Assembly: GCF_011049865.1 (NCBI RefSeq)
Contig: NZ_DRGY01000100.1
Location: 11,952-75,951, forward strand
DNA: 64,000 nucleotides
Origin: Marinobacter antarcticus
GTDB taxonomy: Bacteria > Pseudomonadota > Gammaproteobacteria > Pseudomonadales > Oleiphilaceae
Direction: 5' to 3'
Below, one piece after another: positions 1 to 49,590 of the stretch (within the stretch, counting starts at the first letter, position 1; every line of letters begins with the position of its first letter). The translations under genes were made by a program, and so were the position numbers. The notes beneath the pieces are model-generated. The model saw only the letters and a program-made list of their open reading frames with translations. It ran no database searches and had not been told where the DNA came from.

Positions 1-302
1 TAGACAGTGCCTTCGCGGTCACTGTCTGCGAGCTCTGCCCGCGCCAGTATAAGGGCCAGTGCCGTTGCTGGCAGCAAAATAAGCTTTGCCCAGACACTCA
101 GTGTATCGATGCGATATGTGCCACTGAATATGCCGGTGTCCTGGCCTAAAAGCGGCAGAGTCAGAACGGTCGCAACCAGCAGGCCGGCCAGCATGACCAC
201 CAGCGCTGTACGGGGCAGGTGCAGCATTTCGGCTACCAGCGCGGCAACAATGCTGAGAAGTAGAATGATCTCGGGGATCAGCAGAATAAGGTCAGAAGCC
301 AT
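1..302 (-). CDS. nuoN: NuoN-like antiporter-type subunit, N-terminal part (runs off the window)
   Basis: Not in the ORF track. ATG at 302 overlaps the nuoM-like stop (TGATG). Translates as MASDLILLIPEIILLSIVAALVAEMLHLP...GTYRIDTLSVWAKLILL, with the NuoN-typical N-terminal LxPE and the 'Y.iD.ls...K' pattern. Position follows nuoM. Confidence 0.75.
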   Translation of the reverse strand, partial: MASDLILLIPEIILLLSIVAALVAEMLHLPRTALVVMLAGLLVATVLTLPLLGQDTGIFSGTYRIDTLSVWAKLILLPATALALILARAELADSDREGTV

Positions 303-1771
303 CAGAACTGCAGCGCCGCTGTGGTCTTGTGAATGATGTCTAACACCCAGGACGGTGCGATGCCCACTACAATAATCAATATCAACAGCGGAGCCAGTGC
401 GAGTATTTCACGTCGGTTCAGATCCTTCATGTCGCTCCACCGGTCGTTTGCCTCACCAAGAAACACCTGGCTGATCGCCTTCAGATAAAGGCCTGCGGTA
501 ATAACGATACCAAGAATAGCGATGACCGCCATTGGTTCGACCTGCAGGGTCGCCAGAAAGATCTGAAACTCGGCCGGAAAGTGCGCCAGACCGGGCAAGC
601 CCAGAGAAGCGAAAGCGGCCAGCATGAAAGACCAGCCAAGCACCGGTGTCAGCTGTAGCAGGCCACCGAATTGGTCCATCTCCCGGGTGTGGGCACGATC
701 TTGTAGCATGCCGACAAGCAAAAACAGGGCGCTGGTGACAAGGCCATGGCTGACCATTTGCAGAACCGCACCATCGAGTGCAATTGTGCGTACCGTCGGG
801 TCGAGCGCCAGCCCGGCAATGGCGACTCCGACGATGACATAACCCATGTGGTTAACGGACGTATAGGCGATCAAACGCTTGAGGTCGCTCTGCGCCAGAG
901 CGGCAAATGCACCATAAAGAGCGGCGATGACACCGAAAGTCAGAATGACGATACCAGCTTCATGAAAGGCGTCTGGTGTCATCTGCAAGGAAAATCGCAC
1001 CAGCCCATAGGTGCCAAATTTCAGCATCACCCCAGCAAGTATGACGCTACCGGCCGTAGGTGCCTGCACGTGTGCGGCAGGTAGCCATGTGTGTAAAGGG
1101 AATACCGGTGTCTTGACCGCAAAGGTAAACAGCATTGCAACTAATGCCCACATGGCTGCCGCGCCGGCCAGAGGTGGGTTGTCGATCCAGGCGCGCATGT
1201 CGAAAGTGTGCGGATCACTGCCCAGATATAGCCCAAGTATTGCCAACAGCAGTGGCAGGCTGCCCAGGAAGGTGTAAATAAAAAACATCAGCGCTGCTCG
1301 CTGTCGGTCTTCGTGTCCCCAGCCGGCAATCATGAAATACATGGATACCAGTGATATCTCGAAAAATACGTAGAACAGGATACCATCCAGCGCCGTGAAG
1401 GTACCGATAGCGGTCGTTTCCAACAGTAGCATCAGCACCACAAAGGCTGGGGCGCGTTCACGCAGCTTGGCAGAATAGATAAAAGTGATGAAAAACAGTA
1501 GGGCGCTCAACAGCACCAGCGGCAGACTGATACCGTCAACCCCCACCCGGTAGGCGGCACCGATGGAAGGCATCCAGTCGATCTGTTCAACCTGGGCAAA
1601 ACCGCTGTCATTAACACCTCGTAACCACATCAACACGCCACCCAAAAGCGTCAAGCCACTGGTTGTTATGCCGATGGCGTGCACTACCCCCGGCGGAGGC
1701 CTGCGCAACACCATGATGAGCAGCGCTCCGAGGAGCGGCAGAAACACGGTTATGGACACGATGGGCAGCAC
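302..1771 (-). CDS. nuoM: NuoM-like antiporter-type subunit of a Complex I-like complex
   Basis: Motifs GVDGISLPL, FFEISLVSMYFMI, AVKTPVFPLHTWLP, AGVMLKFG, IAYTSVNHMG, FPAEF. GTG start with an AAGGAG RBS. Confidence 0.92.
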   Translation of the reverse strand: MLPIVSITVFLPLLGALLIMVLRRPPPGVVHAIGITTSGLTLLGGVLMWLRGVNDSGFAQVEQIDWMPSIGAAYRVGVDGISLPLVLLSALLFFITFIYSAKLRERAPAFVVLMLLLETTAIGTFTALDGILFYVFFEISLVSMYFMIAGWGHEDRQRAALMFFIYTFLGSLPLLLAILGLYLGSDPHTFDMRAWIDNPPLAGAAAMWALVAMLFTFAVKTPVFPLHTWLPAAHVQAPTAGSVILAGVMLKFGTYGLVRFSLQMTPDAFHEAGIVILTFGVIAALYGAFAALAQSDLKRLIAYTSVNHMGYVIVGVAIAGLALDPTVRTIALDGAVLQMVSHGLVTSALFLLVGMLQDRAHTREMDQFGGLLQLTPVLGWSFMLAAFASLGLPGLAHFPAEFQIFLATLQVEPMAVIAILGIVITAGLYLKAISQVFLGEANDRWSDMKDLNRREILALAPLLILIIVVGIAPSWVLDIIHKTTAALQF

Positions 1772-1785
1772 GCAGATTGTCTCCT

Positions 1786-3603
1786 TTAAAAAGTCAGTAT
1801 TGAAATCAGTAGGGTGGCGAAAATCAACGTGGTAACCACGACGGTGATAACCAGTTCGCGATGGATGAGCCCACTTTGCAGGCGACGGGCGCGACTGCCA
1901 AGAGAGGTCACGCCACGAACCAGAGAAAATATCAGCCCGTCGATACCCCGTTCATCGCCAAGGCGCACGGCCTGACCAAGACTGAGTCCAAGTTGCCCCA
2001 GAGCCAGCACCCGGTTGTATAGTGCGCGCTCCAGTCGCTCGCAGCTGCGGGCGATAGCGAGTGCGGGCCGCACCATCCAGGTATTGAAGCCGCCAGCGAT
2101 GGCGAAGCTTCGCTGACTCCATGGCCTCAACGGGCCCAGCAAATGCTGTGCCGGAACAAACCAACCCAGGGTCAGGCCCACTACTGCGGCAACAAGACCC
2201 AGCATCATGGCAACATTATTTGCAGGGAGCGGGTCGGAAAACATTGCCTCGATAGCCGGAAAGGCAGCGCCAAGGATGGCGGCCAGAATAACAAGGCACG
2301 CCAGCGCCGCTCCCATCCATGCCAGACCGGTGATGTTATGGTGTGCGGTGTTTCCTTGCCAGAGAATACGAAGCGACCGGGCCATATAGGCGCCGGTGAG
2401 CAGTGTGCTGGCCAGCACAAGTGTTGTGAATAATGGAGCGTAGGAGGAGGCCAGAGCGGCGGCAATAATGGCATCCTTGGAAAAGAAACCACTCAGCGGG
2501 GGAATACCCGTCAAAGCCAGCGCGGCCACAGCAAAACCGAAGAATATCCACGGTCGGTCGCGCCCTGCGCCATGAAGTTCGCTGAACGCCGTGCTATCAC
2601 GGCTGTGCTGGAACACCCCCGCGCCGAGAAACAGAGAGCTCTTGATGAACGCGTGGGCCAGCAGGTGCAGCAATGCTGCCAGGGGTACCCCAGCCCCGAC
2701 CGCCACCAGCATCAAGCCATACTGACTGGAAGTCGACGCCGCAAGCGTGCGCTTCAGGTCACTCTCGCCCAGGGCAATCAAACCGGTGACCAGGGTGGTG
2801 ATACCGCCAACGATACCAATTACCAGCAGTACCTGATCCGGCAACATCGGCGCCGTGCGGATCAGTAGAATCGCGCCCGCGGCCACCAGAGTGGCGGAGT
2901 GCAATAGCGCCGAGACTGGGGTGGGGCCGGCCATGGCCCGCTGTAACCAGTCATGTAATGGTGTCTGCGCCGATTTCCCCATGGCTGCGACCAATAGCAG
3001 CAGCCCTGCGGCTGTCGCGGCACCACCACCGGTGTTTAACGTGGTGGTGATATTGCTGCTGCCCGCGTCAGCAATGAGGATGAATACCCCAATATAGAGT
3101 CCCAGGTCGGCGCTGCGGGTATAAAGGAAGGCGCGGGTGGCAGCGGATCTTACTCCCGGGCGCTGGAACCAGAAACCGATCAGCAAATAGCTGGCAAGTC
3201 CGATGAGCTCCCAGGCGGCAAGCAGTAATATCCAGTCGCCGGCGAGCACCAGGGTTTGCATGGCGGCGACAAACAGCAGCATGGTGGCAAAGAAACGAAC
3301 CTTCTCATCGTCCCGCTTCATGTAGCCGATGGCGTACACCACCACCAGACCGCCAATAATGGCGACCAGGCCTGAAAGCAATGCTGTGAGTGGTGTGGCG
3401 ACCAGGCTCAGGGGCAGATTCGGCAAACCCGGTAACTGTATCTCGTGGCTCACTCCGGCGCTTGTGTCCGCCAACAGCGCGAGGCTGGCCAGCAGACCGA
3501 TTGTGGCGCCTGATAGCGCGAACACCTCGGGGATTCGCCGCAGCAACAGAATGAGCATTGCAGCAGCAAGCGGTGCGAGGATCGTGGCGAAAATAAGATT
3601 CAT
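1786..3603 (-). CDS. nuoL: NuoL-like antiporter-type subunit
   Basis: Motifs WELIGLASY, GKSAQTPLHDWL, GPTPVSALLHSATLVAAG, FFSKD, plus a C-terminal amphipathic helix ending LQSG...TM. Confidence 0.92.
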   Translation of the reverse strand: MNLIFATILAPLAAAMLILLLRRIPEVFALSGATIGLLASLALLADTSAGVSHEIQLPGLPNLPLSLVATPLTALLSGLVAIIGGLVVVYAIGYMKRDDEKVRFFATMLLFVAAMQTLVLAGDWILLLAAWELIGLASYLLIGFWFQRPGVRSAATRAFLYTRSADLGLYIGVFILIADAGSSNITTTLNTGGGAATAAGLLLLVAAMGKSAQTPLHDWLQRAMAGPTPVSALLHSATLVAAGAILLIRTAPMLPDQVLLVIGIVGGITTLVTGLIALGESDLKRTLAASTSSQYGLMLVAVGAGVPLAALLHLLAHAFIKSSLFLGAGVFQHSRDSTAFSELHGAGRDRPWIFFGFAVAALALTGIPPLSGFFSKDAIIAAALASSYAPLFTTLVLASTLLTGAYMARSLRILWQGNTAHHNITGLAWMGAALACLVILAAILGAAFPAIEAMFSDPLPANNVAMMLGLVAAVVGLTLGWFVPAQHLLGPLRPWSQRSFAIAGGFNTWMVRPALAIARSCERLERALYNRVLALGQLGLSLGQAVRLGDERGIDGLIFSLVRGVTSLGSRARRLQSGLIHRELVITVVVTTLIFATLLISILTF

Positions 3604-3911
3604 CCTTTCAACTCGGCGGCTTCTTCCATTTCAACCGAACCTATGGCGCGGAAACGGGCGATGGCCACACCAAAGCCTACTGCCATTTCTACTGCCATCA
3701 CGGTCATCACGATCAACACAAACATCTGTCCGGCGGGGGTGTCTGGATGCAGGTAGTGCCAGAATGCGACCAGGTTAACCATGGCGCCGGCCAATATTAA
3801 CTCCACACCCATCAGGAGCATCACTAGATTGGTTTGCGACAGTGCGCCGTATATGCCGATACCGAACAGCGCTGCGCCGGTGATTAACGCGGGGAACAGT
3901 TCAGGCGTCAT
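3600..3911 (-). CDS. nuoK: NuoK-like subunit
   Basis: 103 aa, three TM segments, MGVELIL and MAVEMAVG with both conserved Glu residues. Confidence 0.9.
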   Translation of the reverse strand: MTPELFPALITGAALFGIGIYGALSQTNLVMLLMGVELILAGAMVNLVAFWHYLHPDTPAGQMFVLIVMTVMAVEMAVGFGVAIARFRAIGSVEMEEAAELKG

Positions 3912-4429
3912 CAGTTTCGGTTCCTTTTTAAGGGTTCAACCGCCACGGCCGTGGCAGCAATCATGGCGGTAAGGAGTGTGAGACCAGCGGTCTCGAAGAT
4001 CAGCATTGATCTACCCATCAGCTCAAGCCCCAGATCCTCGATCTGTTGTGCGGAATCCGGTACCGAGCCGGCGAGAGTCCCCCAGTTGGTAAATAGGGCC
4101 ACGGCTACGATGGCCAAAAATGCCACCAGACCCGTTATCACGGAACGGCGCTTTTGATGGGTCATATCCATCTTGCCCAGACCGCCCGGATCCATCATGA
4201 ACATCACCATAAAAATCGCCATGATGCTCATTTCCGTGGCCATCATCATGATCTGCAACACACCGAGGAATTCCGCCTGCATCCCGATGAACATGGCACC
4301 GATAGCTGTTTGTGAGAACAGCAGGGCCAGTGCGGAACGCATCATCGAATGAGTGCGGAAGACGACTATCCCGAACCACACGGCGGCGAGCCCAAAGAAG
4401 CTGATAAAAAACGTCTGTGCGCTGATCAT
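3911..4429 (-). CDS. nuoJ: NuoJ-like subunit
   Basis: Start taken at MISAQTFF (ATGA overlap with the nuoH stop). AEFLGVLQIMMM region; C-terminal 'LGLELM...LIFETAGLTLLTAMIAA' pattern. Confidence 0.85.
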   Translation of the reverse strand: MISAQTFFISFFGLAAVWFGIVVFRTHSMMRSALALLFSQTAIGAMFIGMQAEFLGVLQIMMMATEMSIMAIFMVMFMMDPGGLGKMDMTHQKRRSVITGLVAFLAIVAVALFTNWGTLAGSVPDSAQQIEDLGLELMGRSMLIFETAGLTLLTAMIAATAVAVEPLKRNRN

Positions 4430-5322
4430 GGCCATACCAACACCTGCAGCCCAACCACAAAGATATTGAGTAGCGCCAGAGGGATACCGAGTTTCCAGCA
4501 TAAACTCAGCAGATCGGCCTCGCGGACACGCGGCAAAGCCGGCCCGGCCAGCAACATGAGTGCGGTGACCGCCAATATCTTGATGGCGCTCCAGGCCCAG
4601 GGAGGCAGCCAGGGCCCTTGCCAGCCACCCAGATAGAAAACGACGATGGTTGCCGCCAGAGTAATAACCAGCACCAAACGTCCAAGCCGAAAGACTGCCA
4701 GCCGCACGCCGCTGTATTCCGCTTCCACGCCGCCGGCCAGCTCACTTGTTGCCGTGGTCAGGTCGAACGGCGGCAGAAACGCCAGCGCCATGGCGGCGAC
4801 GAAAAACAGTACAAATCCCAGTGGCTGGTAAAGAATATTCCATAGATCCGCTTGGGAGGTAACGATTTGGGTGGTCAACAAAGACTCGGCGCGCATCGCC
4901 ACCGCGGTGACGGGCATAACGATGAGCATGGCATAGGCAATGAGCTGGCCCAGAAAGCGCCAGCCACCGATCATTGCATAGGCGCCGTTCGGCCCCCAGC
5001 CGGCCATCAGCAAAGCCACCAGTACATAAACCAGTGCCGCGTTGATGAACAGTACGCCGGTGGCGAGGTCAGTGATGATCAAACCAGGTGTCAGAGGAAG
5101 CACCGTGGCGGCAAGCAGTGCCGAGATCAACAACAGGACCGGTGCCACCTCAAAGAAAACCCGGTCGGGTTTGCGCGGTACGATAGATTCCCGGCCCAGC
5201 AGGGCGATGCCGGCGGTGATCGGTGCGGCCAGTTGCCAGCGCCCGTTCATAGTCCAGGCTTCGATTACCGCGACCAGGTAAGCACCGACGGCCAATAATA
5301 GGAGTATGAGCGCAGTCGTCAT
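4426..5322 (-). CDS. nuoH: NuoH-like subunit (degenerate acidic loop)
   Basis: Motifs PFDL...SELAGG...[20 protein letters not shown]...CWK. Confidence 0.88.
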
Positions 5323-7223
5323 TGGCGAATCTCCCAGGGCGACAGATCCAGAGAGCCCACGGCGAGGAGGGCATCGCCCAGCGACTGTTGCTTGGTCAGG
5401 GTGTCGATCAGGGTGAGGTGGTGTGTGGAGGGTGTTTCCAACTGCGCTGTTACCACAAGACCCTTTTCCAGGGTCAGATACAGATGAGCTGCGCCGCGGG
5501 GTGTTTCAACGAATGCCTCGCCAGCGCCGGTTGCCGAGCCGATGGCAGTTGGCTCGGGTAGTTCGATGGTACCGGCGGCATCAATAAGCGCGAGACTTTG
5601 GCTGAGCTCGTCAAGACGTACCTGCAGGCGGGCCATACTATCACCGCTGTCGCGGCTGATTGCCTTGAATCCCAGCGCGGTGTAGACCGGGTTCGTACTT
5701 CGTGCGTCGTTGTCAATGCCCACAGCGCGTGCCACGGGGCCTCGCAAGGCATTATCTTGAGCTAGCCGACCGATGCCAGCGTTGCGTGATTTCAGTAATG
5801 GTGTCCGGCGCAGGCGTTTGATCAGGCTTGCTAAGTCTGGTTTGAGCGCCATGATTTGCTGATCGTTCGCATACCGGAACTTCAGTTGCATTGTTGCAGC
5901 ACGTCGTAACAGCCAGTCGAAGCCCATCTGCTGACCGAACAGCGCCAGCCAGCCCAGATGACTGGTGATTCGTTCTCTTTCCAATGCACCAATGCGGCCA
6001 TGGGCCGCAGTAGTCGTAATGTCGATGCCAGCAGCATTTTCCATCGCCTGGCTGGCAAGAAAGTGATAAGCAAGCGGAGCCAGTGGTTCCATATTGCTCA
6101 GCCGCGCTACAAAGCTAAGGGGTTCGAGCGCCGAACGATGAGGCAATGTCACGTTGTCCGTCAGTGTTCCGGCGTTGGAACCGGCAACCGTGTCACCGTC
6201 GAGCGTCAATGTCAGCAATAGGCCACTAGGCAAACCCGGGAAAAACGGCCCAAAGGGCACGTCGATCCAGTCCATTGGCAGGCCGTCACTGCTGCGTGGC
6301 AGATCTTTGGTAACGTCAATCATGGACATAAACGCATCATCCCCATGATCCATATCCCCATGATCCATATCCCCATGATCCATACCGCTGTGATCCATAC
6401 CGCTGTGATCCATATCGCCATGATCCATATCGCCATGATCCATATCGCCATGATTCATATCACTTTGATCAGTGCTGGCATGATCATGGGCTTTTGAAGC
6501 CTTTGCCTTTCGTGGTTCCAGGGTCATGCCACACTTGGGGCAAGAACCCGGCTCGCTCTGCACGACTTCCGGGTGCATGGGACAGGTGTATTCCTCCGAT
6601 GCCGCATGATCCATAGACTGATGGTCGTTCGCTTCGTGCTGATGACTGTGTGATCCGTGATCGTGCGTCTCGTGCGGGTGACTGTCGACGTCATTGGCGG
6701 ACGCCTCGCGCGGCTCCAGAGTCATGCCGCATTTGGGGCAGGAGCCGGGCTCGTCCTGCACTACTTCCGGGTGCATGGGGCAAGTGTATTCGACTCGAAC
6801 GTGCAACATCGGCGCGTCAAAGTCTGTCACTTCTGGTCGAAAGGCGCCTTCGGCGAAAGCAATTCGAAGTTGGGCAATGCCATCAATCAGGCCTGGCTGT
6901 GACAATTCGGCTGTCACATCTGCAGAAGGTAGGGGCGATAGGTCGTCTGTACCCAGAACCAGTAAAGCGCGAGGCCGCGCCATCTGGGCATAGATCACTG
7001 CGGCGGCGTTCCGCAGCGCAGGCGAGATATCGCCAACCACGAGCAGCACGCTGGCGTGGCGAGGGCTGGCTACAAGCCGCACGCCAGCCGCTTCCACATC
7101 CAGCCCCCGTGCATGCGCGATGTCGATCCCCGGAACAAGAAAGCCGGTGAGGTCACGTGCCATTGCTTTGGCCACTAATTGGCGAAGTCCGGAAAGCTTG
7201 CCCTGGCGGGCGCCGACGATCAT
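5319..7223 (-). CDS. Fusion protein: Cys-less NuoB-like domain, two heavy-metal-binding (YTCPMHP) domains, His/Met-rich linker, NuoD-like domain
   Basis: N-terminus [18 protein letters not shown]...IYAQMARPR resembles NuoB. [26 protein letters not shown] occurs twice. (MDHGD)n linker. C-terminus PFGPFFP...[34 protein letters not shown] resembles NuoD. Confidence 0.85.
6341..6460. repeat. 8 x 15-bp tandem repeat encoding M[DN]H[GS][DG] pentapeptides
   Basis: Units ccccatgatccatat, cgctgtgatccatac and cgccatgatccatat read directly from 6341 to 6460. Confidence 0.95.
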
Positions 7224-7580
7224 TTATTGCCTCCGCAATACACCCTGACTCCAGCCATAAAGCAGGCCGAGAAACAGGATGGCAAGAAATACACCCATAT
7301 CAAGCAAGGCAACCAGCCCTACCTGCTTGTAAACCACCGCCCACGGATACATGAACGCCATTTCCATATCGAAAGCCAGAAACAACAAGGCGTATCCATA
7401 ATAACGCGCATGATAACGCACCCAAACTGGGTCACGTGACAGCTGGCCACCAGTTGCGGGGACGTCTTTTCCGGGTTCCTGTTGTGTTTTTCCGGTAGCA
7501 CGTGCGATAGCGTACAGGCTCAGTACGAAGCCTGTCGCACCAACAATCAAGCCCAGCAAAAGTCCATATTGTTCGAGCAT
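7224..7580 (-). CDS. nuoA: NuoA-like subunit
   Basis: YYGYALLFLAFDMEMAFMYPWA and the GWSQGVL end. AGGAG RBS before MLEQYG at 7580. Confidence 0.88.
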   Translation of the reverse strand: MLEQYGLLLGLIVGATGFVLSLYAIARATGKTQQEPGKDVPATGGQLSRDPVWVRYHARYYGYALLFLAFDMEMAFMYPWAVVYKQVGLVALLDMGVFLAILFLGLLYGWSQGVLRRQ

Positions 7581-7778: not shown

Positions 7779-7901
7779 TCATAAAGCTAATGACGAATCT
7801 TTATCATGGCCATCCTTATGACCTCCATGACCGAACAGGTGCATGGCGACAAAGATTATGCCAATCAGAGTCCAGAACCAGTTTTCCGCTCGCCATTCCA
7901 T
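7779..7901 (-). CDS. 40-aa single-TM His-rich micro-protein (DUF2933-like)
   Basis: Hand-translated as MEWRAENWFWTLIGIIFVAMHLFGHGGHKDGHDKDSSLAL*. AAGGGTGAG RBS upstream. Below the length cut-off of the ORF track. Confidence 0.6.
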   Translation of the reverse strand: MEWRAENWFWTLIGIIFVAMHLFGHGGHKDGHDKDSSLAL

Positions 7902-26566: not shown

Positions 26567-28105
26567 TTAAAAGGTGTATGCTACGCCCGTCGAGAACGCT
26601 AGAACACTGTCTTCATCTTCTCCAGCCGGAATAAAGTTGGTTAAACCGGCCAGTGTCTGTTCGTCAGTCCAAGTGTATTCCGTGGCAAATGAAATCACCC
26701 AGTCTGGAACCGGACGATAGGCCAGGCCAAGGGTGACGCGATTAACAATAGAGCTTTTCTCTTTTTCGAGGTTGGTGATCTGGCGATTGGAGAACTCAAT
26801 ACCGGTTATCCTATTGCGAACAACAACCTGCTCCATGCGAACGGTCGGTTCAAGAGAGGGGTTGCCGAAACCACGCCCTAGAAAGGTATTGTCCAATGCT
26901 TTCGGCCAGAATGGGTAACGAGCTTCTATCCAATAACCTGTGCGGCTTTCAGCGAGCCCGCCGAGCGTGATTTCGCTAACGACTTCTGTGGTTTCACCGC
27001 CTTCGGCACTGATCTTTGCCTCCACTTCTTTATCTACAGCGGCACGGGCGAAACTGGCAGCAACGTCATCAATATTGCCCCAATCGGTGTGAACAACCTC
27101 GTATTCAAATTCAAACCCACCAAAAGTATGAAGCCCATCAACGGCAACTGACCACACCGACTCAGAGTCCATGAAATCCGGCGTATAGCGTCCGTAATAT
27201 CCAGAAACGGCGAATTCCTGTCCCGGTTCAGGCAACAGGCCCAGCCGCCCAGTAATGGCTTTATTGCCGTTAAGATCGTTGGAAAATCCGCCGCGGGAAG
27301 GGGCAAATCCAGCTTCAAATTTGGTGACACCTATCGTTGAGTTGCCAGCAGGTTCGGCTGCTACTTCGCCCTCGAATTCGAAGTCGAGGTTGACGCCGTT
27401 TACTGCGTAAAGTCGGTAGTCAACCAGGCCCGCCCGGGTTTCTACCAGTCCTGAAAAACCCAGCCCCAGTTCTGGCCATGCGGCCTTGTTTGGCAAGACG
27501 GGCGCACCCCTGTCTACCAGAGTACGACGAGTCAAATTCCATTGATTGTCATCATGATTGATATTAAAGCGGCCTAAAGGAACAAGCAGGGCACCCATGT
27601 CCAGATTGACGCTGTCATTGATACGATATCTTGCCCAGGCCTGTTCCATCGATATTTCTGAGCCATTGGTTCCTTCGATTGCCTGTCCTGCAGAGAAACC
27701 ATCAGACCCTGCCGAAGCTCCTTTTTCCAGCTCAATTGCGCCAAACCGCTCAAATTCCAACTCGAAGTAAGCTTCAAGGCGGTCGTTAATTTTACCGTCG
27801 CCCGTCAAAACAAAACGTCGAAAAGTAAAGGTGTCCTGGTCGGCGTCCAAGTTGTTTGATTCGGCGCGGATCGAACCGTATCCACCTATATGAAAGTCCC
27901 TTGCGCCAGACTGCACAGAGCCATTGTCGCTAACCTTGGACTCGCCAGACGAATTCATCGAATCTTCCAGGGTCTCGATCCGCTTCTGCTGCTCTTCGAT
28001 TACCTGCCACAACTGTTCATCGCTATTACTAGCCTCTTCGGCAATAACGATAGGTGTCGCCAAACTTCCCGCCAGCCCGAAAACAAAAGCCGTTCTTTTA
28101 ATCAC
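26567..28105 (-). CDS. Outer-membrane beta-barrel/porin with N-terminal coiled coil
   Basis: GTG start at 28105 with GGAG RBS; signal peptide; EEQQKRIETLE coil; GGYG, ELEFE; C-terminal GVAYTF. Confidence 0.8.
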   Translation of the reverse strand: MIKRTAFVFGLAGSLATPIVIAEEASNSDEQLWQVIEEQQKRIETLEDSMNSSGESKVSDNGSVQSGARDFHIGGYGSIRAESNNLDADQDTFTFRRFVLTGDGKINDRLEAYFELEFERFGAIELEKGASAGSDGFSAGQAIEGTNGSEISMEQAWARYRINDSVNLDMGALLVPLGRFNINHDDNQWNLTRRTLVDRGAPVLPNKAAWPELGLGFSGLVETRAGLVDYRLYAVNGVNLDFEFEGEVAAEPAGNSTIGVTKFEAGFAPSRGGFSNDLNGNKAITGRLGLLPEPGQEFAVSGYYGRYTPDFMDSESVWSVAVDGLHTFGGFEFEYEVVHTDWGNIDDVAASFARAAVDKEVEAKISAEGGETTEVVSEITLGGLAESRTGYWIEARYPFWPKALDNTFLGRGFGNPSLEPTVRMEQVVVRNRITGIEFSNRQITNLEKEKSSIVNRVTLGLAYRPVPDWVISFATEYTWTDEQTLAGLTNFIPAGEDEDSVLAFSTGVAYTF

Positions 28106-28264
28106 AATGATATCTCCGTCATCCATTGAAGTGGGTGCCCATACCGAGGCTCTGATAGACGACATGAGTTTACGGACCTGGCTGATAAATGTAAACGATA
28201 ACAATTTATATTCAGTATAAAACCCCAGGCAATGTATAACTGTTAAGGTGATTGATATCAGGCA

Positions 28265-47834: not shown

Positions 47835-49349
47835 TTATTCTCCAGTATTTTGTTGTGTTTCTGGCATGGCGGTCAGATCTTCGACCACATAGCCTTGGGG
47901 GGTCTCGCGAAAACGAAAGGTGACTTTCTGGTCCATGTCCAGTCCGGTCGTATCCACCGACTCTGATATCCCAAAGGTCATCGTCATGGCGGGCCAGCTC
48001 AGTTCCGTTATAGGACCGTGATTCAGTGTGATGCTTGCGGATTCGCCGCCGAGGTCAAGTTCTGAAATTCTCCCGATCCCGGTGATTAACCCTGCGGTTT
48101 CGGCGTTCCCTTTGCCGCTGGATGCGCTGGTCTGGCCGGATTCGAAACGCAACAGGGCTTCCTCCAGGTTGGTTTCCGAGTCGATTAGAAATTGAGCAGA
48201 TGTAACCACCCGCTGACCTTCATTAAGACCGTCAATGACCACAATACGATTGCCGGCTTCCTGGCCGGTGCGCACCGGTGCGGGACGAAAATAGCCGTCG
48301 CCCTCCGCAACCAGCACGTGCTGGCTGTTGGTACGCTGGATCAGCGCGGACCTTGGAACAGTCAGTAAGTTTTCACCAATGGGCGCATCCATTGTTAACT
48401 GGACGAACATATTGGGTCGCAGAGTACCCTCCGTGTTGGGAACACGAATTCTTGCCCGAAGACTCCGTGTGCGACGATCGAGCTCCGGATAGACATAATC
48501 AATTGTGCCTTGCCACTCCCTGTTGGGCAGTGCCGGGGTTGTGAAACGCACCTCTTGCCCAGCTTTCACCAGGCCTGCCTGACGCTCAAAAAATTCTGCA
48601 ATTATCCAGACCGAATCCCGACTACCGATCGCCATGATTTCAGTGTCCGGGCGGATATACATACCAGCACGGGCATTCAGGTTCGTTACATAACCGGAGC
48701 TGGGTGCAAACATGGTTATCCGCTGCAGCGCTTTTCCATTTTTCTTCAGCGATGCAATCTGGGCGTCCGTCATCCCCAAAGCGCGGAGTTTGTTTCCGGA
48801 CGCTTCGGCGACCGGGCCCGAACTGACACGCAGGGCAAGCAGAAACTCCTGCTGGGCGTTGACCAACTCCGGTGAATAGATCTCAAACAGCGGTTGGTTT
48901 TTCTTAACGTTTTCGCCGACGGACTTCACATGGAGCACTTCAACCCAGCCAGAAATTCGACTGTGAACCAGCGTTAGCTGCTCTTCATTGTCAGTGACGT
49001 AACCCACCGTCGAGACAGGTATAGCAACGGCGCCCCGCGTCACAACACCGGTTTTGACTCCGAGGTTAGCGCGAATCTGTGAGTTAATACTGACGCCACC
49101 GTCCTCGTTATCTAAGCTGTTGTCGTCGTAAACCGGCACCAGGTCCATCCCCATGGGGGACTGCCCAGGTTTGTCTCGCCGATAGTTAGGGTCCATTGGT
49201 GCAACCCAGTAAAGCGGTGCTTCTTTGCCTGCCGACTCGCTGGATACGTTCATTGCTGTTCCCGACACTTCAGAGAACACGTATGGACGGCCCAGCAAAC
49301 CAGCTATAAAAGCAATAGCAACCAGTGCCACCAATAAGGCAAATCGCAT
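47835..49349 (-). CDS. cusB: CusB membrane fusion protein with N-terminal metal-binding motif and C-terminal CusF domain
   Basis: YWVAPMDP...SPMGMDLVP; C-terminal HGPITELSWPAMTMTF. Confidence 0.92.
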   Translation of the reverse strand: MRFALLVALVAIAFIAGLLGRPYVFSEVSGTAMNVSSESAGKEAPLYWVAPMDPNYRRDKPGQSPMGMDLVPVYDDNSLDNEDGGVSINSQIRANLGVKTGVVTRGAVAIPVSTVGYVTDNEEQLTLVHSRISGWVEVLHVKSVGENVKKNQPLFEIYSPELVNAQQEFLLALRVSSGPVAEASGNKLRALGMTDAQIASLKKNGKALQRITMFAPSSGYVTNLNARAGMYIRPDTEIMAIGSRDSVWIIAEFFERQAGLVKAGQEVRFTTPALPNREWQGTIDYVYPELDRRTRSLRARIRVPNTEGTLRPNMFVQLTMDAPIGENLLTVPRSALIQRTNSQHVLVAEGDGYFRPAPVRTGQEAGNRIVVIDGLNEGQRVVTSAQFLIDSETNLEEALLRFESGQTSASSGKGNAETAGLITGIGRISELDLGGESASITLNHGPITELSWPAMTMTFGISESVDTTGLDMDQKVTFRFRETPQGYVVEDLTAMPETQQNTGE

Positions 49350-49590
49350 TGGTTCTTTCTCCAAATCATCAAATTGAGTTAGTGAGGGGGAGGGCCGCGG
49401 GTGTGCGGCTCTCCCGGCCTAAGACTTGTTAGCCTTCAGACCCTGGCACGGAGGCTGGTGTATCAGAGTGCTCATGCATCCCGCCAGAGGACGCCTGGGT
49501 GGTTTCATGATATTTCCTCGTAATAGCACACATGCGCCCGCTCACCCGAATTAGCTGGGGGTTAGACGGGCAAACAAGTCAGGTATTGAT

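Follow-up and report, generated by a model that had tools for sequence, protein, structure and literature searches.

Gene organization of a complex I-like operon

The window, i.e., the whole stretch of 64,000 nucleotides from Marinobacter antarcticus that was analyzed, carries at one end an eight-gene operon on the minus strand, which was assigned from open reading frames and Pfam/NCBIfam matches as nuoA, a NuoB~NuoD fusion and nuoH-J-K-L-M-N (Table 1). All eight reading frames are intact and translationally coupled. The nuoA and fusion genes abut (TAAATG), ATGA overlaps are found at the fusion/nuoH, nuoH/nuoJ and nuoK/nuoL junctions and TGATG overlaps at nuoJ/nuoK and nuoM/nuoN, and a single gap, of 14 nt and containing a ribosome-binding site, separates nuoL from nuoM. 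Apart from this gap, the tight coupling was as stated in a preliminary description of this DNA, which had also pointed to a nuo gene order devoid of nuoC, nuoEFG and nuoI. Consistent with the latter, neither the genes from nuoA to nuoN nor the sequence beyond nuoN included nuoC, nuoE/F/G or nuoI. When contig C100 was read beyond the window (C100:1–13000), the full nuoN was found to encode 456 aa (C100:10883–12253) and to be followed by an EamA transporter gene on the opposite strand; because of this neighbor, the operon ends with nuoN, and the Fe-S subunit that might have been encoded just past the window is absent. Among the eight products, there were no Pfam/NCBIfam matches to the MrpE/F/G families and no E1-E2 ATPase/HAD or ACR_tran domains, the latter two being present in other genes of the surrounding island. 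Besides, a DUF2933-type mini-protein gene upstream of nuoA may be an accessory gene of the operon; DUF2933 also adjoins operon copies in Marinobacter and Rubrobacter.

Table 1. Features of the operon and its upstream gene (positions in the window).
Feature	Position	Strand	Description
DUF2933-type mini-protein	7785–7901	-	38 aa; His-rich tail
nuoA	7224–7580	-	118 aa; ATG at 7580, AGGAGA ribosome-binding site upstream
NuoB~HMBDx2~NuoD fusion	5319–7223	-	634 aa
NuoB-like domain	6819–7223	-	~aa 1–135; confidently folded; no cysteine; 27-residue deletion
HMBD 1	6708–6794	-	~aa 144–172; 26 protein letters not shown
His-rich acidic linker	6597–6707	-	aa 173–209; predicted disordered
HMBD 2	6510–6596	-	~aa 210–238
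His/Met/Asp repeat linker	6333–6509	-	aa 239–297; (DHGDM)n and (DHSGM)n repeats; predicted disordered
NuoD-like domain	5319–6332	-	aa 298–634; starts with invariant FMSMxxxTKDLP motif; no cysteine
nuoH	4426–5322	-	298 aa
nuoJ	3911–4429	-	172 aa; ~10% Met
nuoK	3600–3911	-	103 aa
nuoL	1786–3603	-	605 aa; C-terminal lateral helix and anchor present
nuoM	302–1771	-	489 aa; TIGR01972 504 bits, above cut-off
nuoN, 5' part	1–302	-	third antiporter-like subunit; rest outside the window

The metal-resistance island reported in the preliminary description proved real, with three HME-RND systems, two CDF transporters, a P1B-ATPase with a MerR regulator, a multicopper oxidase and a CusB-type adaptor bearing HMBD and CusF domains.

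Loss of redox sites in the NuoB~NuoD cap

The peripheral arm of complex I is cut down here to one cytoplasmic NuoB~NuoD cap. Its AlphaFold model (pLDDT 82.7, pTM 0.75) matches the NuoD/HycE/MbsL fold, and both the NuoB and NuoD parts score far under their family cut-offs. In the alignment, the N2 ligands of the NuoB-like domain (C63, C64, C129 and C158 in E. coli) are changed to A, A, D/E/G and L, and the cysteine ligands are missing in 60/60 family members; 81 of 119 N-terminal domains in the family have no cysteine at all. Similarly, the quinone site of NuoD shows His to Phe, His to Pro and Tyr to Pro changes in 58–59 of 60 sequences, and its Asp (in QDVGA) was read as Gln in every displayed sequence of the alignment. 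The fusion contains six cysteines, all of them inside the two HMBDs. Judged by these residues, the cap is unable to bind cluster N2 or quinone. We also found no tblastn match to NuoI/C/E/F/G within 10 kb at at least 19 related loci.

Several observations would favor an enzyme that is still redox-active, either by borrowing the canonical NuoI/C/E/F/G or by using bound copper as a redox center that conserves energy from copper redox reactions. Elsewhere in the genome there is a canonical 13-subunit nuo operon, multicopper oxidases frequently adjoin the operon, and energy conservation from copper redox reactions has been speculated for a related cassette of Marinobacter atlanticus (PMC8233155). 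However, with the N2 and quinone ligands gone and no cysteine outside the HMBDs, electron transfer could not be re-established by borrowed NuoI/C/EFG. The operon is also carried by itself on plasmids and across phyla, and the three-sulfur site of the HMBD stabilizes Cu(I) (PMC11970713), which makes a redox function very hard to credit. The earlier conclusion that the complex is not an oxidoreductase of known type, which had been based on gene content only, is therefore supported.

Copper-type domains inserted between NuoB and NuoD

The preliminary description had recognized the B/D fusion, which is genuine; what is new is that two HMBD domains and His/Met-rich linkers occupy the place of NuoC. 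PF19335 (HMBD) was matched in two stretches at 93.5 bits (cut-off, 23.6), with the pattern C-x-M-H ... C-x-x-C, and the domains match the N-terminal metal-binding domain of Legionella CopA (LpCopA; 3RFU/8OVL) with E = 4e-10. In both proteins, a YTCPMHPE...PGxCPxCGM core follows a flexible His-rich tail on the cytoplasmic side; the LpCopA domain is fused to a P-type ATPase, whereas here tandem copies follow the NuoB-like domain and precede the NuoD-like domain; in Stappia, two copies are carried by NuoJ itself. The LpCopA domain holds Cu+ by three sulfurs and has been assigned the role of a copper sensor, regulatory rather than delivering ions (PMC11970713), so the HMBDs of the fusion need not mark the transported substrate. 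By analogy, they are predicted to bind Cu(I), a property known for LpCopA only, and the evidence favors cytoplasmic Cu(I) sensors or donors. The number of HMBD copies ranged from 1 to 11 per family member, and the 28 measurable members lacking an HMBD all still had linkers (median 15% His).

Proton channels and a methionine-lined E-channel

In the membrane arm, the Glu/Lys/His proton-pump residues of NuoL and NuoM are all invariant. NuoM has E144, K234, K265, H322, H348 and E407, and NuoL keeps E144, D178, K229, H254, H334, H338, K342, K399 and D400 (E. coli numbering for NuoM). In NuoN, Leu takes the place of the TM5 Glu (E. coli E133) and the three Lys are retained, so that either two or three proton channels may be working.

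The subunits that form the E-channel have been remodeled, and the altered residues are those given this name in E. coli complex I (PMC8357420). TM3 of NuoJ has ten changes (E55Q, I57M, V58M, Y59M, G61T, A62E, I63M, L66M, V70M and L74M), each present in 23–24 of 24 sequences, Rubrobacter and Fodinibius included; the positions of I57, V58, Y59, I63, L66, V70 and L74 are Met in 24/24 sequences from three phyla, and the TM3-4 loop reads MDMTH. NuoK retains E36 and E72, around which there are about nine family-specific methionines, and has His55 in its TM2-3 loop. In NuoA, D79 and E81 are retained with family-specific M80, M82 and M85 next to them; H66 and M104 are also family-specific. NuoH has a shorter TM1-2 loop, retains E36, E71, D213, E220, E228 and R293, and shows D63A, E157A and R209L together with V158M, L162M and A169M, the three methionines sharing one helix face. 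Methionine accounts for 17% and 16% of the family-specific conserved substitutions in NuoJ and NuoK, respectively, versus 2–5% in NuoL/M/N, and its enrichment in A+J+K over L+M+N was significant (Fisher exact test, p = 1.7e-5). Thus, the E-channel subunits NuoJ, NuoK, NuoA and NuoH have been relined with invariant methionines, which, from their sequence positions and the published topology, would be continuous in space. With copper-type domains and this relining in place and every electron-carrying site gone, the complex is most likely not a respiratory enzyme.

Comparison with Mrp, complex I and Ehr systems

The operon and complex I have the same gene order, A-(B..D)-H-J-K-L-M-N, and share the seven membrane subunits A, H, J, K, L, M and N, the lateral helix of NuoL, a NuoM that passes the TIGR01972 cut-off, the Glu/Lys/His residues of NuoL/NuoM and the NuoB and NuoD cap folds. 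Unlike complex I, it has no NuoC, NuoE/F/G or NuoI, no N2 cysteines and no quinone His/Tyr/Asp, gains the HMBDs, the His/Met inserts and the Met-relined E-channel, and has NuoH E157, NuoJ E55 and Y59 and NuoN E133 replaced.

The closest working analogy is Mrp, which likewise combines antiporter-like subunits with NuoK- and NuoJ-like ones and has no redox part. For Mrp, the NuoJ-like module, at MrpA E706, has been put forward as the site where the non-proton cation passes, and the position of NuoJ Y59 corresponds to this residue at the Na+ coupling point (PMC7419157). In contrast to Mrp, the operon has NuoH, NuoA and the NuoB~NuoD cap and no MrpE/F/G, and its coupling-point residue is Met (24/24 sequences) instead of Glu, suggesting a soft metal as the substrate. 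It might be argued that the complex is nevertheless a monovalent cation (Na+/K+)/H+ antiporter of the Mrp kind, or a regulated proton path, with the HMBD cap as a copper-responsive regulatory lid only. The lack of a redox module, the intact NuoL/NuoM channels and the retained NuoK E36/E72 and NuoA D79/E81 agree with this view, as does the LpCopA HMBD being a sensor and not an ion donor. We consider it decidedly unlikely, however, in view of the loss of the carboxylates flanking the Mrp coupling point (NuoJ E55Q and NuoN E133L), the Met at the MrpA E706 position, the use of invariant Met for aliphatic residues, which points to soft-metal ligands and not to Na+/K+, and the Mrp system that the genome already has (contig C138).

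Ehr complexes reportedly retain Fe-S subunits. They are assumed to be redox-coupled, whereas the operon encodes no Fe-S small subunit or ferredoxin-like subunit and has a full complex I-type membrane arm as well as copper-type domains. What is shared is a large-subunit/NuoD homolog of the same superfamily without Ni-Fe cysteine motifs; the function of the Ehr complexes is unknown (PMC6349859).

A putative member of the same family is the complex I-like 'nuoADHJKL' cassette of M. atlanticus CP1 (ACP86_11540–11570), which lies in a copper-resistance cluster (Eddie et al. 2021, PMC8233155). That cassette is co-expressed with copper homeostasis genes, carries the annotation 'NiFe-hydrogenase III large subunit' and has seven genes with a short NuoL and no nuoM or nuoN; HMBDs, lost ligands and methionines were not noted in the paper (PMC8233155). 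Our literature search returned this one report of a related cassette co-expressed with copper genes and no mechanistic description of such an operon.

Selection, distribution and genomic neighbors

Values of dN/dS were 0.01–0.34 across all eight genes, indicating that the operon is under purifying selection, and the family comprises 143 clusters at 50% identity (E <= 1e-30). A duplicated nuo operon that has lost its function and is decaying could account for the degenerate NuoB and NuoD parts, which fall far under family cut-offs, and occasional copies are in fact broken (L037). This reading is effectively refuted by eight intact frames with translational coupling, the dN/dS range, new residues that are invariant across three phyla and the number of clusters; the homologs are not mostly pseudogenized, an outcome that the preliminary description had allowed for.

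The operon was found on 12 plasmids, and copper genes adjoin it on 5 of the 6 plasmids examined. They also adjoin it in Thiogranum, Fodinibius, Cribrihabitans and Stappia and in the window itself. For sulfur-oxidizing Gammaproteobacteria, most of the loci derived from metagenomes had no copper genes within 6–10 kb.

These neighborhoods also bear on what the transport of copper would serve. Periplasmic cuproproteins are common neighbors (multicopper oxidase, CopB, plastocyanin/azurin, cupredoxin and cytochrome c), and many host genomes already have P1B-ATPases for detoxification; the same machine, working in the same direction, could then supply periplasmic Cu(I) to cuproproteins such as multicopper oxidase, cupredoxins and oxidases, like the slow CopA2/CcoI-type ATPases, and not serve detoxification. 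Location in resistance islands and on plasmids carrying efflux systems, and up to 11 HMBDs with long His/Met tails that suggest a response to copper excess, make such a role unlikely. Import of Cu/Ag, or sequestration from periplasm to cytoplasm with the HMBDs and His/Met tails as an acceptor sink, would fit the many predicted high-capacity binding sites in the cytoplasm, and sequence cannot tell direction. It appears highly improbable: resistance islands and plasmids would hardly be expected to carry genes for taking up a toxic metal, cations would already enter along the membrane potential with no need of three antiporter-like subunits, and the CopA HMBDs belong to an exporter. We infer that the direction of transport is export.

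A putative Cu(I) exporter on a complex I scaffold

We propose, with a probability of about 0.55, that the operon encodes a Cu(I) exporter that is driven by the proton-motive force, has a complex I scaffold and works in an Mrp-like manner, with Ag(I) as a probable further substrate. The preliminary description had suggested a membrane arm repurposed as a metal-gated or metal-driven translocator. Metal-linked translocation fits the HMBDs, the Met-relined E-channel, the intact NuoL/NuoM channels and the copper-gene neighborhoods in many isolates; as to the second part of that suggestion, the evidence favors proton-driven metal transport over a "metal-driven" proton pump. In the proposed cycle, the HMBDs and linkers would capture or sense cytoplasmic Cu(I), which may be handed from the cap, at its FMSM motif, to NuoJ, first to the MDMTH loop and then to the methionine ladder of TM3, and be let out to the periplasm near the His residues of NuoK. 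Inward flow of H+ through NuoL/NuoM, and perhaps NuoN, would drive the cycle as in Mrp Na+/H+ antiporters, and several H+ per Cu(I) would allow copper to be pumped against a very steep gradient without ATP. In CusA (RND) and Ctr1, Cu(I)/Ag(I) is passed stepwise between stacked methionine ligands across the membrane protein. The folds of these two proteins are unrelated to those of the operon products, and the analogy is one of chemistry only.

The chances appear about even that the operon encodes the first transition-metal transporter of the complex I/Mrp superfamily, in which the cap would be a Cu(I) receiver and the E-channel a Met-lined route for Cu(I)/Ag(I), powered by two or three proton channels at a high H+:Cu+ ratio. 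If true, the operon would represent a new mobile class of bacterial copper exporters, beside P1B-ATPases and the RND/Cus, CDF-type and CopB/CopD-type systems.

Organization of the operon and its genomic setting

The window (C100:11952-75951) comes from a 3.93-Mb genome of 153 contigs, and its first 7.6 kb are occupied by eight tightly coupled minus-strand genes. Their junctions, read directly at the gene borders from nuoA to nuoN, are TAAATG, ATGA, ATGA, TGATG, ATGA, a 14-nt spacer with a ribosome-binding site, and TGATG, in agreement with the coupled operon with ATGA, TGATG and abutting junctions proposed in the preliminary description. The absence of nuoC, nuoEFG and nuoI between nuoA and nuoN, also claimed there, was confirmed: no nuoC, nuoE/F/G or nuoI was found anywhere in the operon, including the complete nuoN, which was read from the contig sequence preceding the window. 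The next gene in that sequence encodes an EamA transporter on the opposite strand, so the operon ends with nuoN. The remainder of the window is indeed a metal-resistance island, with three OEP/adaptor/RND sets, two CDF transporters, a P1B-ATPase with a MerR regulator, a multicopper oxidase and a CusB-like periplasmic adaptor. The last has an HMBD at its N-terminus and a CusF domain at its C-terminus, so this island employs the HMBD fold on either side of the membrane. Elsewhere, the genome encodes a 13-subunit nuo operon of the canonical E. coli type (contigs C48/C49) and, on contig C138, an Mrp system. Scanning for promoters and terminators 5' of nuoA gave nothing beyond chance level, no CueR- or CusR-type operator was identified upstream of nuoA, and the LysR gene upstream of the operon was not conserved among relatives.

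Several other genes were observed. A DUF2933-type membrane mini-protein (38 aa, His-rich tail) is encoded just upstream of nuoA, and the Marinobacter (L048) and Rubrobacter (L051) copies of the operon are likewise flanked by DUF2933 genes. Contig C100 also encodes, immediately beyond the window, a CopA-like P1B-ATPase whose N-terminus is an HMBD; a single in-frame stop (…GERMS*WVELIL…) divides it into an HMBD portion of 125 aa and an ATPase portion of 613 aa, which may reflect a pseudogene, a sequencing error or read-through. The island also contains a 545-aa ORF with no Pfam match at E <= 1e-5, and, elsewhere in the genome, an orphan NuoL-like gene outside the nuo, Mrp and copper-linked operons may be of DabB type.

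Coordinates of the operon genes and of other features mentioned in the text
Feature	Location	Strand	Basis or remark
nuoA	window 7224-7580	-	ORF + Pfam/NCBIfam
NuoB~NuoD fusion (cap protein), 634 aa	window 5319-7223	-	ORF + Pfam/NCBIfam
nuoH	window 4426-5322	-	ORF + Pfam/NCBIfam
nuoJ	window 3911-4429	-	ORF + Pfam/NCBIfam
nuoK	window 3600-3911	-	ORF + Pfam/NCBIfam
nuoL	window 1786-3603	-	ORF + Pfam/NCBIfam
nuoM	window 302-1771	-	ORF + Pfam/NCBIfam
nuoN	starts at window 302, exits window	-	whole gene 456 aa
DUF2933-type mini-protein	window 7785-7901	-	
545-aa ORF	window 26567-28204	-	
CusB-type adaptor	window 47835-49364	-	
Split CopA-like P1B-ATPase	L005 5285-7531		contig C100
Orphan NuoL-like gene	C57:85943-86773		
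Pyr_redox_2 flavoprotein, 394 aa	L047 8406-9590; L013 8367-9551	same as operon	Thiogranum-type loci
Divergent actinobacterial operon	L039 9204-17426		Mycobacterium sp. WUMAC-067
Frameshifted nuoA, truncated cap	L037 9635-10543		Wenzhouxiangellaceae MAG
Split nuoN	L018 11079-12375		
nuoH annotated as two pieces	L051 17163-17938		Rubrobacter marinus plasmid
nuoJ with two C-terminal HMBDs	L056 10001-10918		Stappia indica

Loss of redox sites in the cap protein

In the cap protein, Pfam detected a pair of HMBD domains (PF19335, 93.5 bits) and, weakly, NuoD; NCBIfam added a weak NuoB match at the N-terminus. When the NuoB part of 60 family members was aligned with E. coli NuoB and with the canonical NuoB of the same genome, the core proved homologous (e.g., YAQMxRPRA); all four positions of the cysteines that ligand cluster N2 in complex I were replaced, by A, A, D/E/G and L. 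Around the position of the third ligand, 27 residues are missing. In the NuoD part, the His-x3-His loop reads GPFFPGLP versus GPNHPSAHG in E. coli, the quinone Tyr has become Pro in 58 of 60 sequences, and Gln occupies the place of the QDVGA Asp in all sequences displayed, as read off the alignment. The only six cysteines of the cap protein lie within the two HMBDs. AlphaFold2, run on an alignment of 76 sequences, gave a confident model (pLDDT 82.7, pTM 0.75) in which the NuoB-like and NuoD-like domains are folded, each of the two HMBDs forms a small beta unit and the His/Met linkers are disordered; searched against PDB with Foldseek, the model matched only 49-kDa/NuoD/NdhH/HycE/MbsL chains (E ~1e-16, TM up to 0.72).

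These alignments show a complex devoid of any site for Fe-S clusters or quinone, and the earlier claim that it is not an oxidoreductase of known type is thus upheld by the loss of the N2 cysteines and the quinone His, Tyr and Asp. Borrowing of Fe-S subunits from the canonical nuo operon was ruled out because the ligands of the cap itself are gone. A redox role had been considered for Marinobacter atlanticus, in which a seven-gene 'nuoADHJKL' cassette lies inside the cop cluster, interrupting it, and is expressed together with genes of copper homeostasis; the authors speculated that energy was derived from copper redox chemistry and made no mention of HMBDs, missing ligands or methionines (Eddie et al. 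2021, PMC8233155). Going by its published description, this cassette may belong to the same family as the M. antarcticus operon. Given the missing ligands, a redox enzyme after all is very improbable. Beyond this passing note, no account of the family or its mechanism was found in the literature, and PMC13707694 and PMC8478169 do not mention it. Complex I is among the closest known systems, but the copper-linked family differs from it in every redox feature. The loosely defined Ehr complexes share its ligand-free large subunit, although they are assumed to be redox-coupled, and Mrp is the closest working analogy despite a different subunit set.

Copper-type domains of the cap

The HMBD with its His-rich leader resembles the metal-binding domain at the N-terminus of Legionella CopA (3RFU, 8OVL; E = 4e-10). 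NMR has shown that this CopA domain coordinates Cu+ with three sulfurs; it acts in the cytosol as a copper sensor, relieving autoinhibition (Hu et al. 2024, PMC11970713). The match shows that the cytoplasmic cap bears domains of Cu(I) type. The number of HMBD copies ranged from 1 to 11. In an anchor-based analysis, linkers were measurable in 51 of 105 long representatives; HMBDs occurred in 23 of these, and all 28 others had His/Met-rich acidic linkers (median 15% His). In the M. antarcticus protein, (DHGDM)n and (DHSGM)n repeats separate HMBD 2 from the NuoD-like domain and are followed by an invariant motif, FMSMxxxTKDLP. Such domains and linkers might also take part in import or sequestration of metal, a reading we consider improbable. 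In Stappia indica, two HMBDs with His-rich linkers are found at the C-terminal end of NuoJ besides the two in the cap protein.

Kept and rebuilt residues of the membrane arm

For each subunit, 17-26 family sequences were aligned with the E. coli and the genome's own canonical subunits, and E. coli residue numbering was verified with the aligned E. coli sequence and with PMC8357420.

Residues kept and changed in the membrane subunits (E. coli numbering)
Subunit	Kept	Changed
NuoL	E144, D178, K229, H254, H334, H338, K342, K399, D400; lateral helix present	none listed
NuoM	E144, K234, K265, H322, H348, E407	none listed
NuoN	three Lys	E133 to Leu/Val
NuoK	E36, E72	~9 family-specific Met; H55
NuoA	D79, E81	M80, M82, M85, H66
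NuoH	E36, E71, D213, E220, E228, R293	D63A, E157A, R209L, V158M, L162M, A169M; TM1-2 loop shorter
NuoJ		E55Q, I57M, V58M, Y59M, G61T, A62E, I63M, L66M, V70M, L74M; TM3-4 loop MDMTH

The alignments show the two antiporter-like subunits, NuoL and NuoM, to be intact, and the E-channel helices to bear invariant methionine stripes. In complex I, the published E-channel comprises H-Glu157, A-Asp79, J-Gly61, which sits on a pi-bulge, and a chain running J-Glu55–K-Glu36–K-Glu72–N-Glu133 (Kolata and Efremov 2021, PMC8357420); it is these residues that are rebuilt in the copper-linked family. All NuoJ changes were present in 23-24 of 24 sequences, including those of Rubrobacter (Actinomycetota) and Fodinibius (Balneolota). 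By arithmetic from the alignment, NuoJ positions 59, 63, 66, 70 and 74 lie inside an 80-degree arc on a helical wheel and span ~22 Å, and the three new NuoH methionines share one helix face. Methionine makes up ~10% of NuoJ versus 3-4% of canonical NuoJ, and its share of family-specific conserved substitutions is 17% in NuoJ, 16% in NuoK and 10% in NuoA versus 2-5% in NuoL/NuoM/NuoN (A+J+K vs L+M+N, Fisher exact p = 1.7e-5). With NuoL and NuoM preserved, the complex could be a Na+/K+/H+ antiporter with a copper-sensing lid. MrpA E706, at the proposed Na+/H+ coupling point of Mrp, corresponds in position to NuoJ Y59 (Steiner and Sazanov 2020, PMC7419157); in the family this position is a Met amid methionines, and the neighbouring carboxylates J-E55 and N-E133 are gone. 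We regard such an antiporter as unlikely.

Distribution, selection and copper-gene context

The eight-gene order was strictly conserved in at least 19 loci of Gamma-, Beta- and Alphaproteobacteria and Balneolota, with no hit to NuoI/C/E/F/G/B within 10 kb of the operon in these loci. Searches yielded 143 clusters (50% identity) for the NuoD-like domain at E <= 1e-30 in a library of 1.84 billion proteins, and 1351 clusters (90% identity) for NuoJ at E <= 1e-5. PGAP (NCBI) names the products 'NADH-quinone oxidoreductase subunit' and 'heavy metal-binding domain-containing protein'. Homologs were not mostly pseudogenised, an outcome the preliminary description had considered: dN/dS against two close relatives was 0.01-0.34 for all eight genes and the new residues are invariant, which rules out a pseudogene and makes a relic extremely improbable. 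Occasional damaged copies (L037, L018, L051) may represent true decay or assembly errors. In the divergent mycobacterial version, the cap is a shorter NuoB~NuoD with long (DHxDM)n repeats and no HMBD, NuoJ is likewise methionine-rich (ILMMVMEMAVMAVYMVMFMGM), and K217 of NuoN is Glu. An NDH-2-like flavoprotein is encoded ~130 bp upstream of nuoA in two Thiogranum-type loci and a Pyr_redox_dim protein just downstream of the operon in T. longum; both may be partners of the operon.

The operon was present on twelve plasmid records, four of them conjugative, from Sulfitobacter, Paracoccus, Roseovarius, Thioclava, Nitratireductor and Rubrobacter. It often lies between IS elements or Tn7-like genes. 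For example, ISKra4-family transposases bracket it on Roseobacter plasmids L050, L052 and L055, and the Roseovarius copy adjoins Tn7-like TniQ/TniB/Mu-transposase genes, suggesting that the operon moves as a cassette.

Copper genes within ~10 kb of the operon were found in Thiogranum longum (multicopper oxidase, CopB, cupredoxin, CusRS, YHS), Fodinibius sediminis (two multicopper oxidases, CopB, CusRS), Cribrihabitans marinus (P1B-ATPase) and Stappia indica (multicopper oxidase), in addition to the M. antarcticus island. Copper-resistance genes lay within a similar distance of the operon on 5 of 6 plasmids examined (Roseovarius, Rubrobacter, Sulfitobacter, Paracoccus and Nitratireductor); the sixth, from Thioclava, had none within 12 kb. 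Among 133 flanking ORFs of 21 loci, the Pfam tally included only 3 multicopper oxidases and mostly unrelated proteins (two-component systems, Amt, HDOD), and tblastn found copper proteins at only 4 of the 21 loci; most of the 21 are from sulfur-oxidiser MAGs. The general neighbourhood enrichment proposed earlier as a check was thus weak. The association between operon and copper genes is not universal, and because copper genes are sparse at the mostly MAG loci, the context support comes mainly from isolates and plasmids. Export could also serve cuproprotein loading rather than detoxification, which is conceivable but has rather low odds.

Proposed mechanism and significance

The reading we favor, with a probability of roughly 55%, is that the complex is a proton/Cu(I) (Ag(I)) antiporter, in which cytoplasmic copper would be exported by inward proton flow, as Na+ is by Mrp. 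The HMBDs and tails would take or sense copper in the cytoplasm, and copper would enter near the former quinone site via the FMSM motif and the NuoJ MDMTH loop, which published complex I topology places on the cytoplasmic face. It would then travel along the methionines of NuoJ/NuoK/NuoA/NuoH and leave on the periplasmic side, driven by protons flowing inward through NuoL/NuoM. With several protons per ion, the driving force would be similar to that of ATP hydrolysis, which could explain the recruitment of a whole complex I arm.

If true, copper and silver resistance would have a new energy-coupling solution, a secondary-active multi-proton pump disseminated by plasmids and islands in bacteria of marine and hydrothermal-vent habitats. 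A widespread annotation error, with current names such as 'NADH-quinone oxidoreductase subunit' and 'Ni,Fe-hydrogenase III large subunit', would be corrected. The family would also be a natural experiment on the most debated question of complex I, the long-range coupling of the quinone site and the E-channel to the proton channels, with the redox trigger swapped for binding of a heavy ion that would be visible both spectroscopically and structurally.
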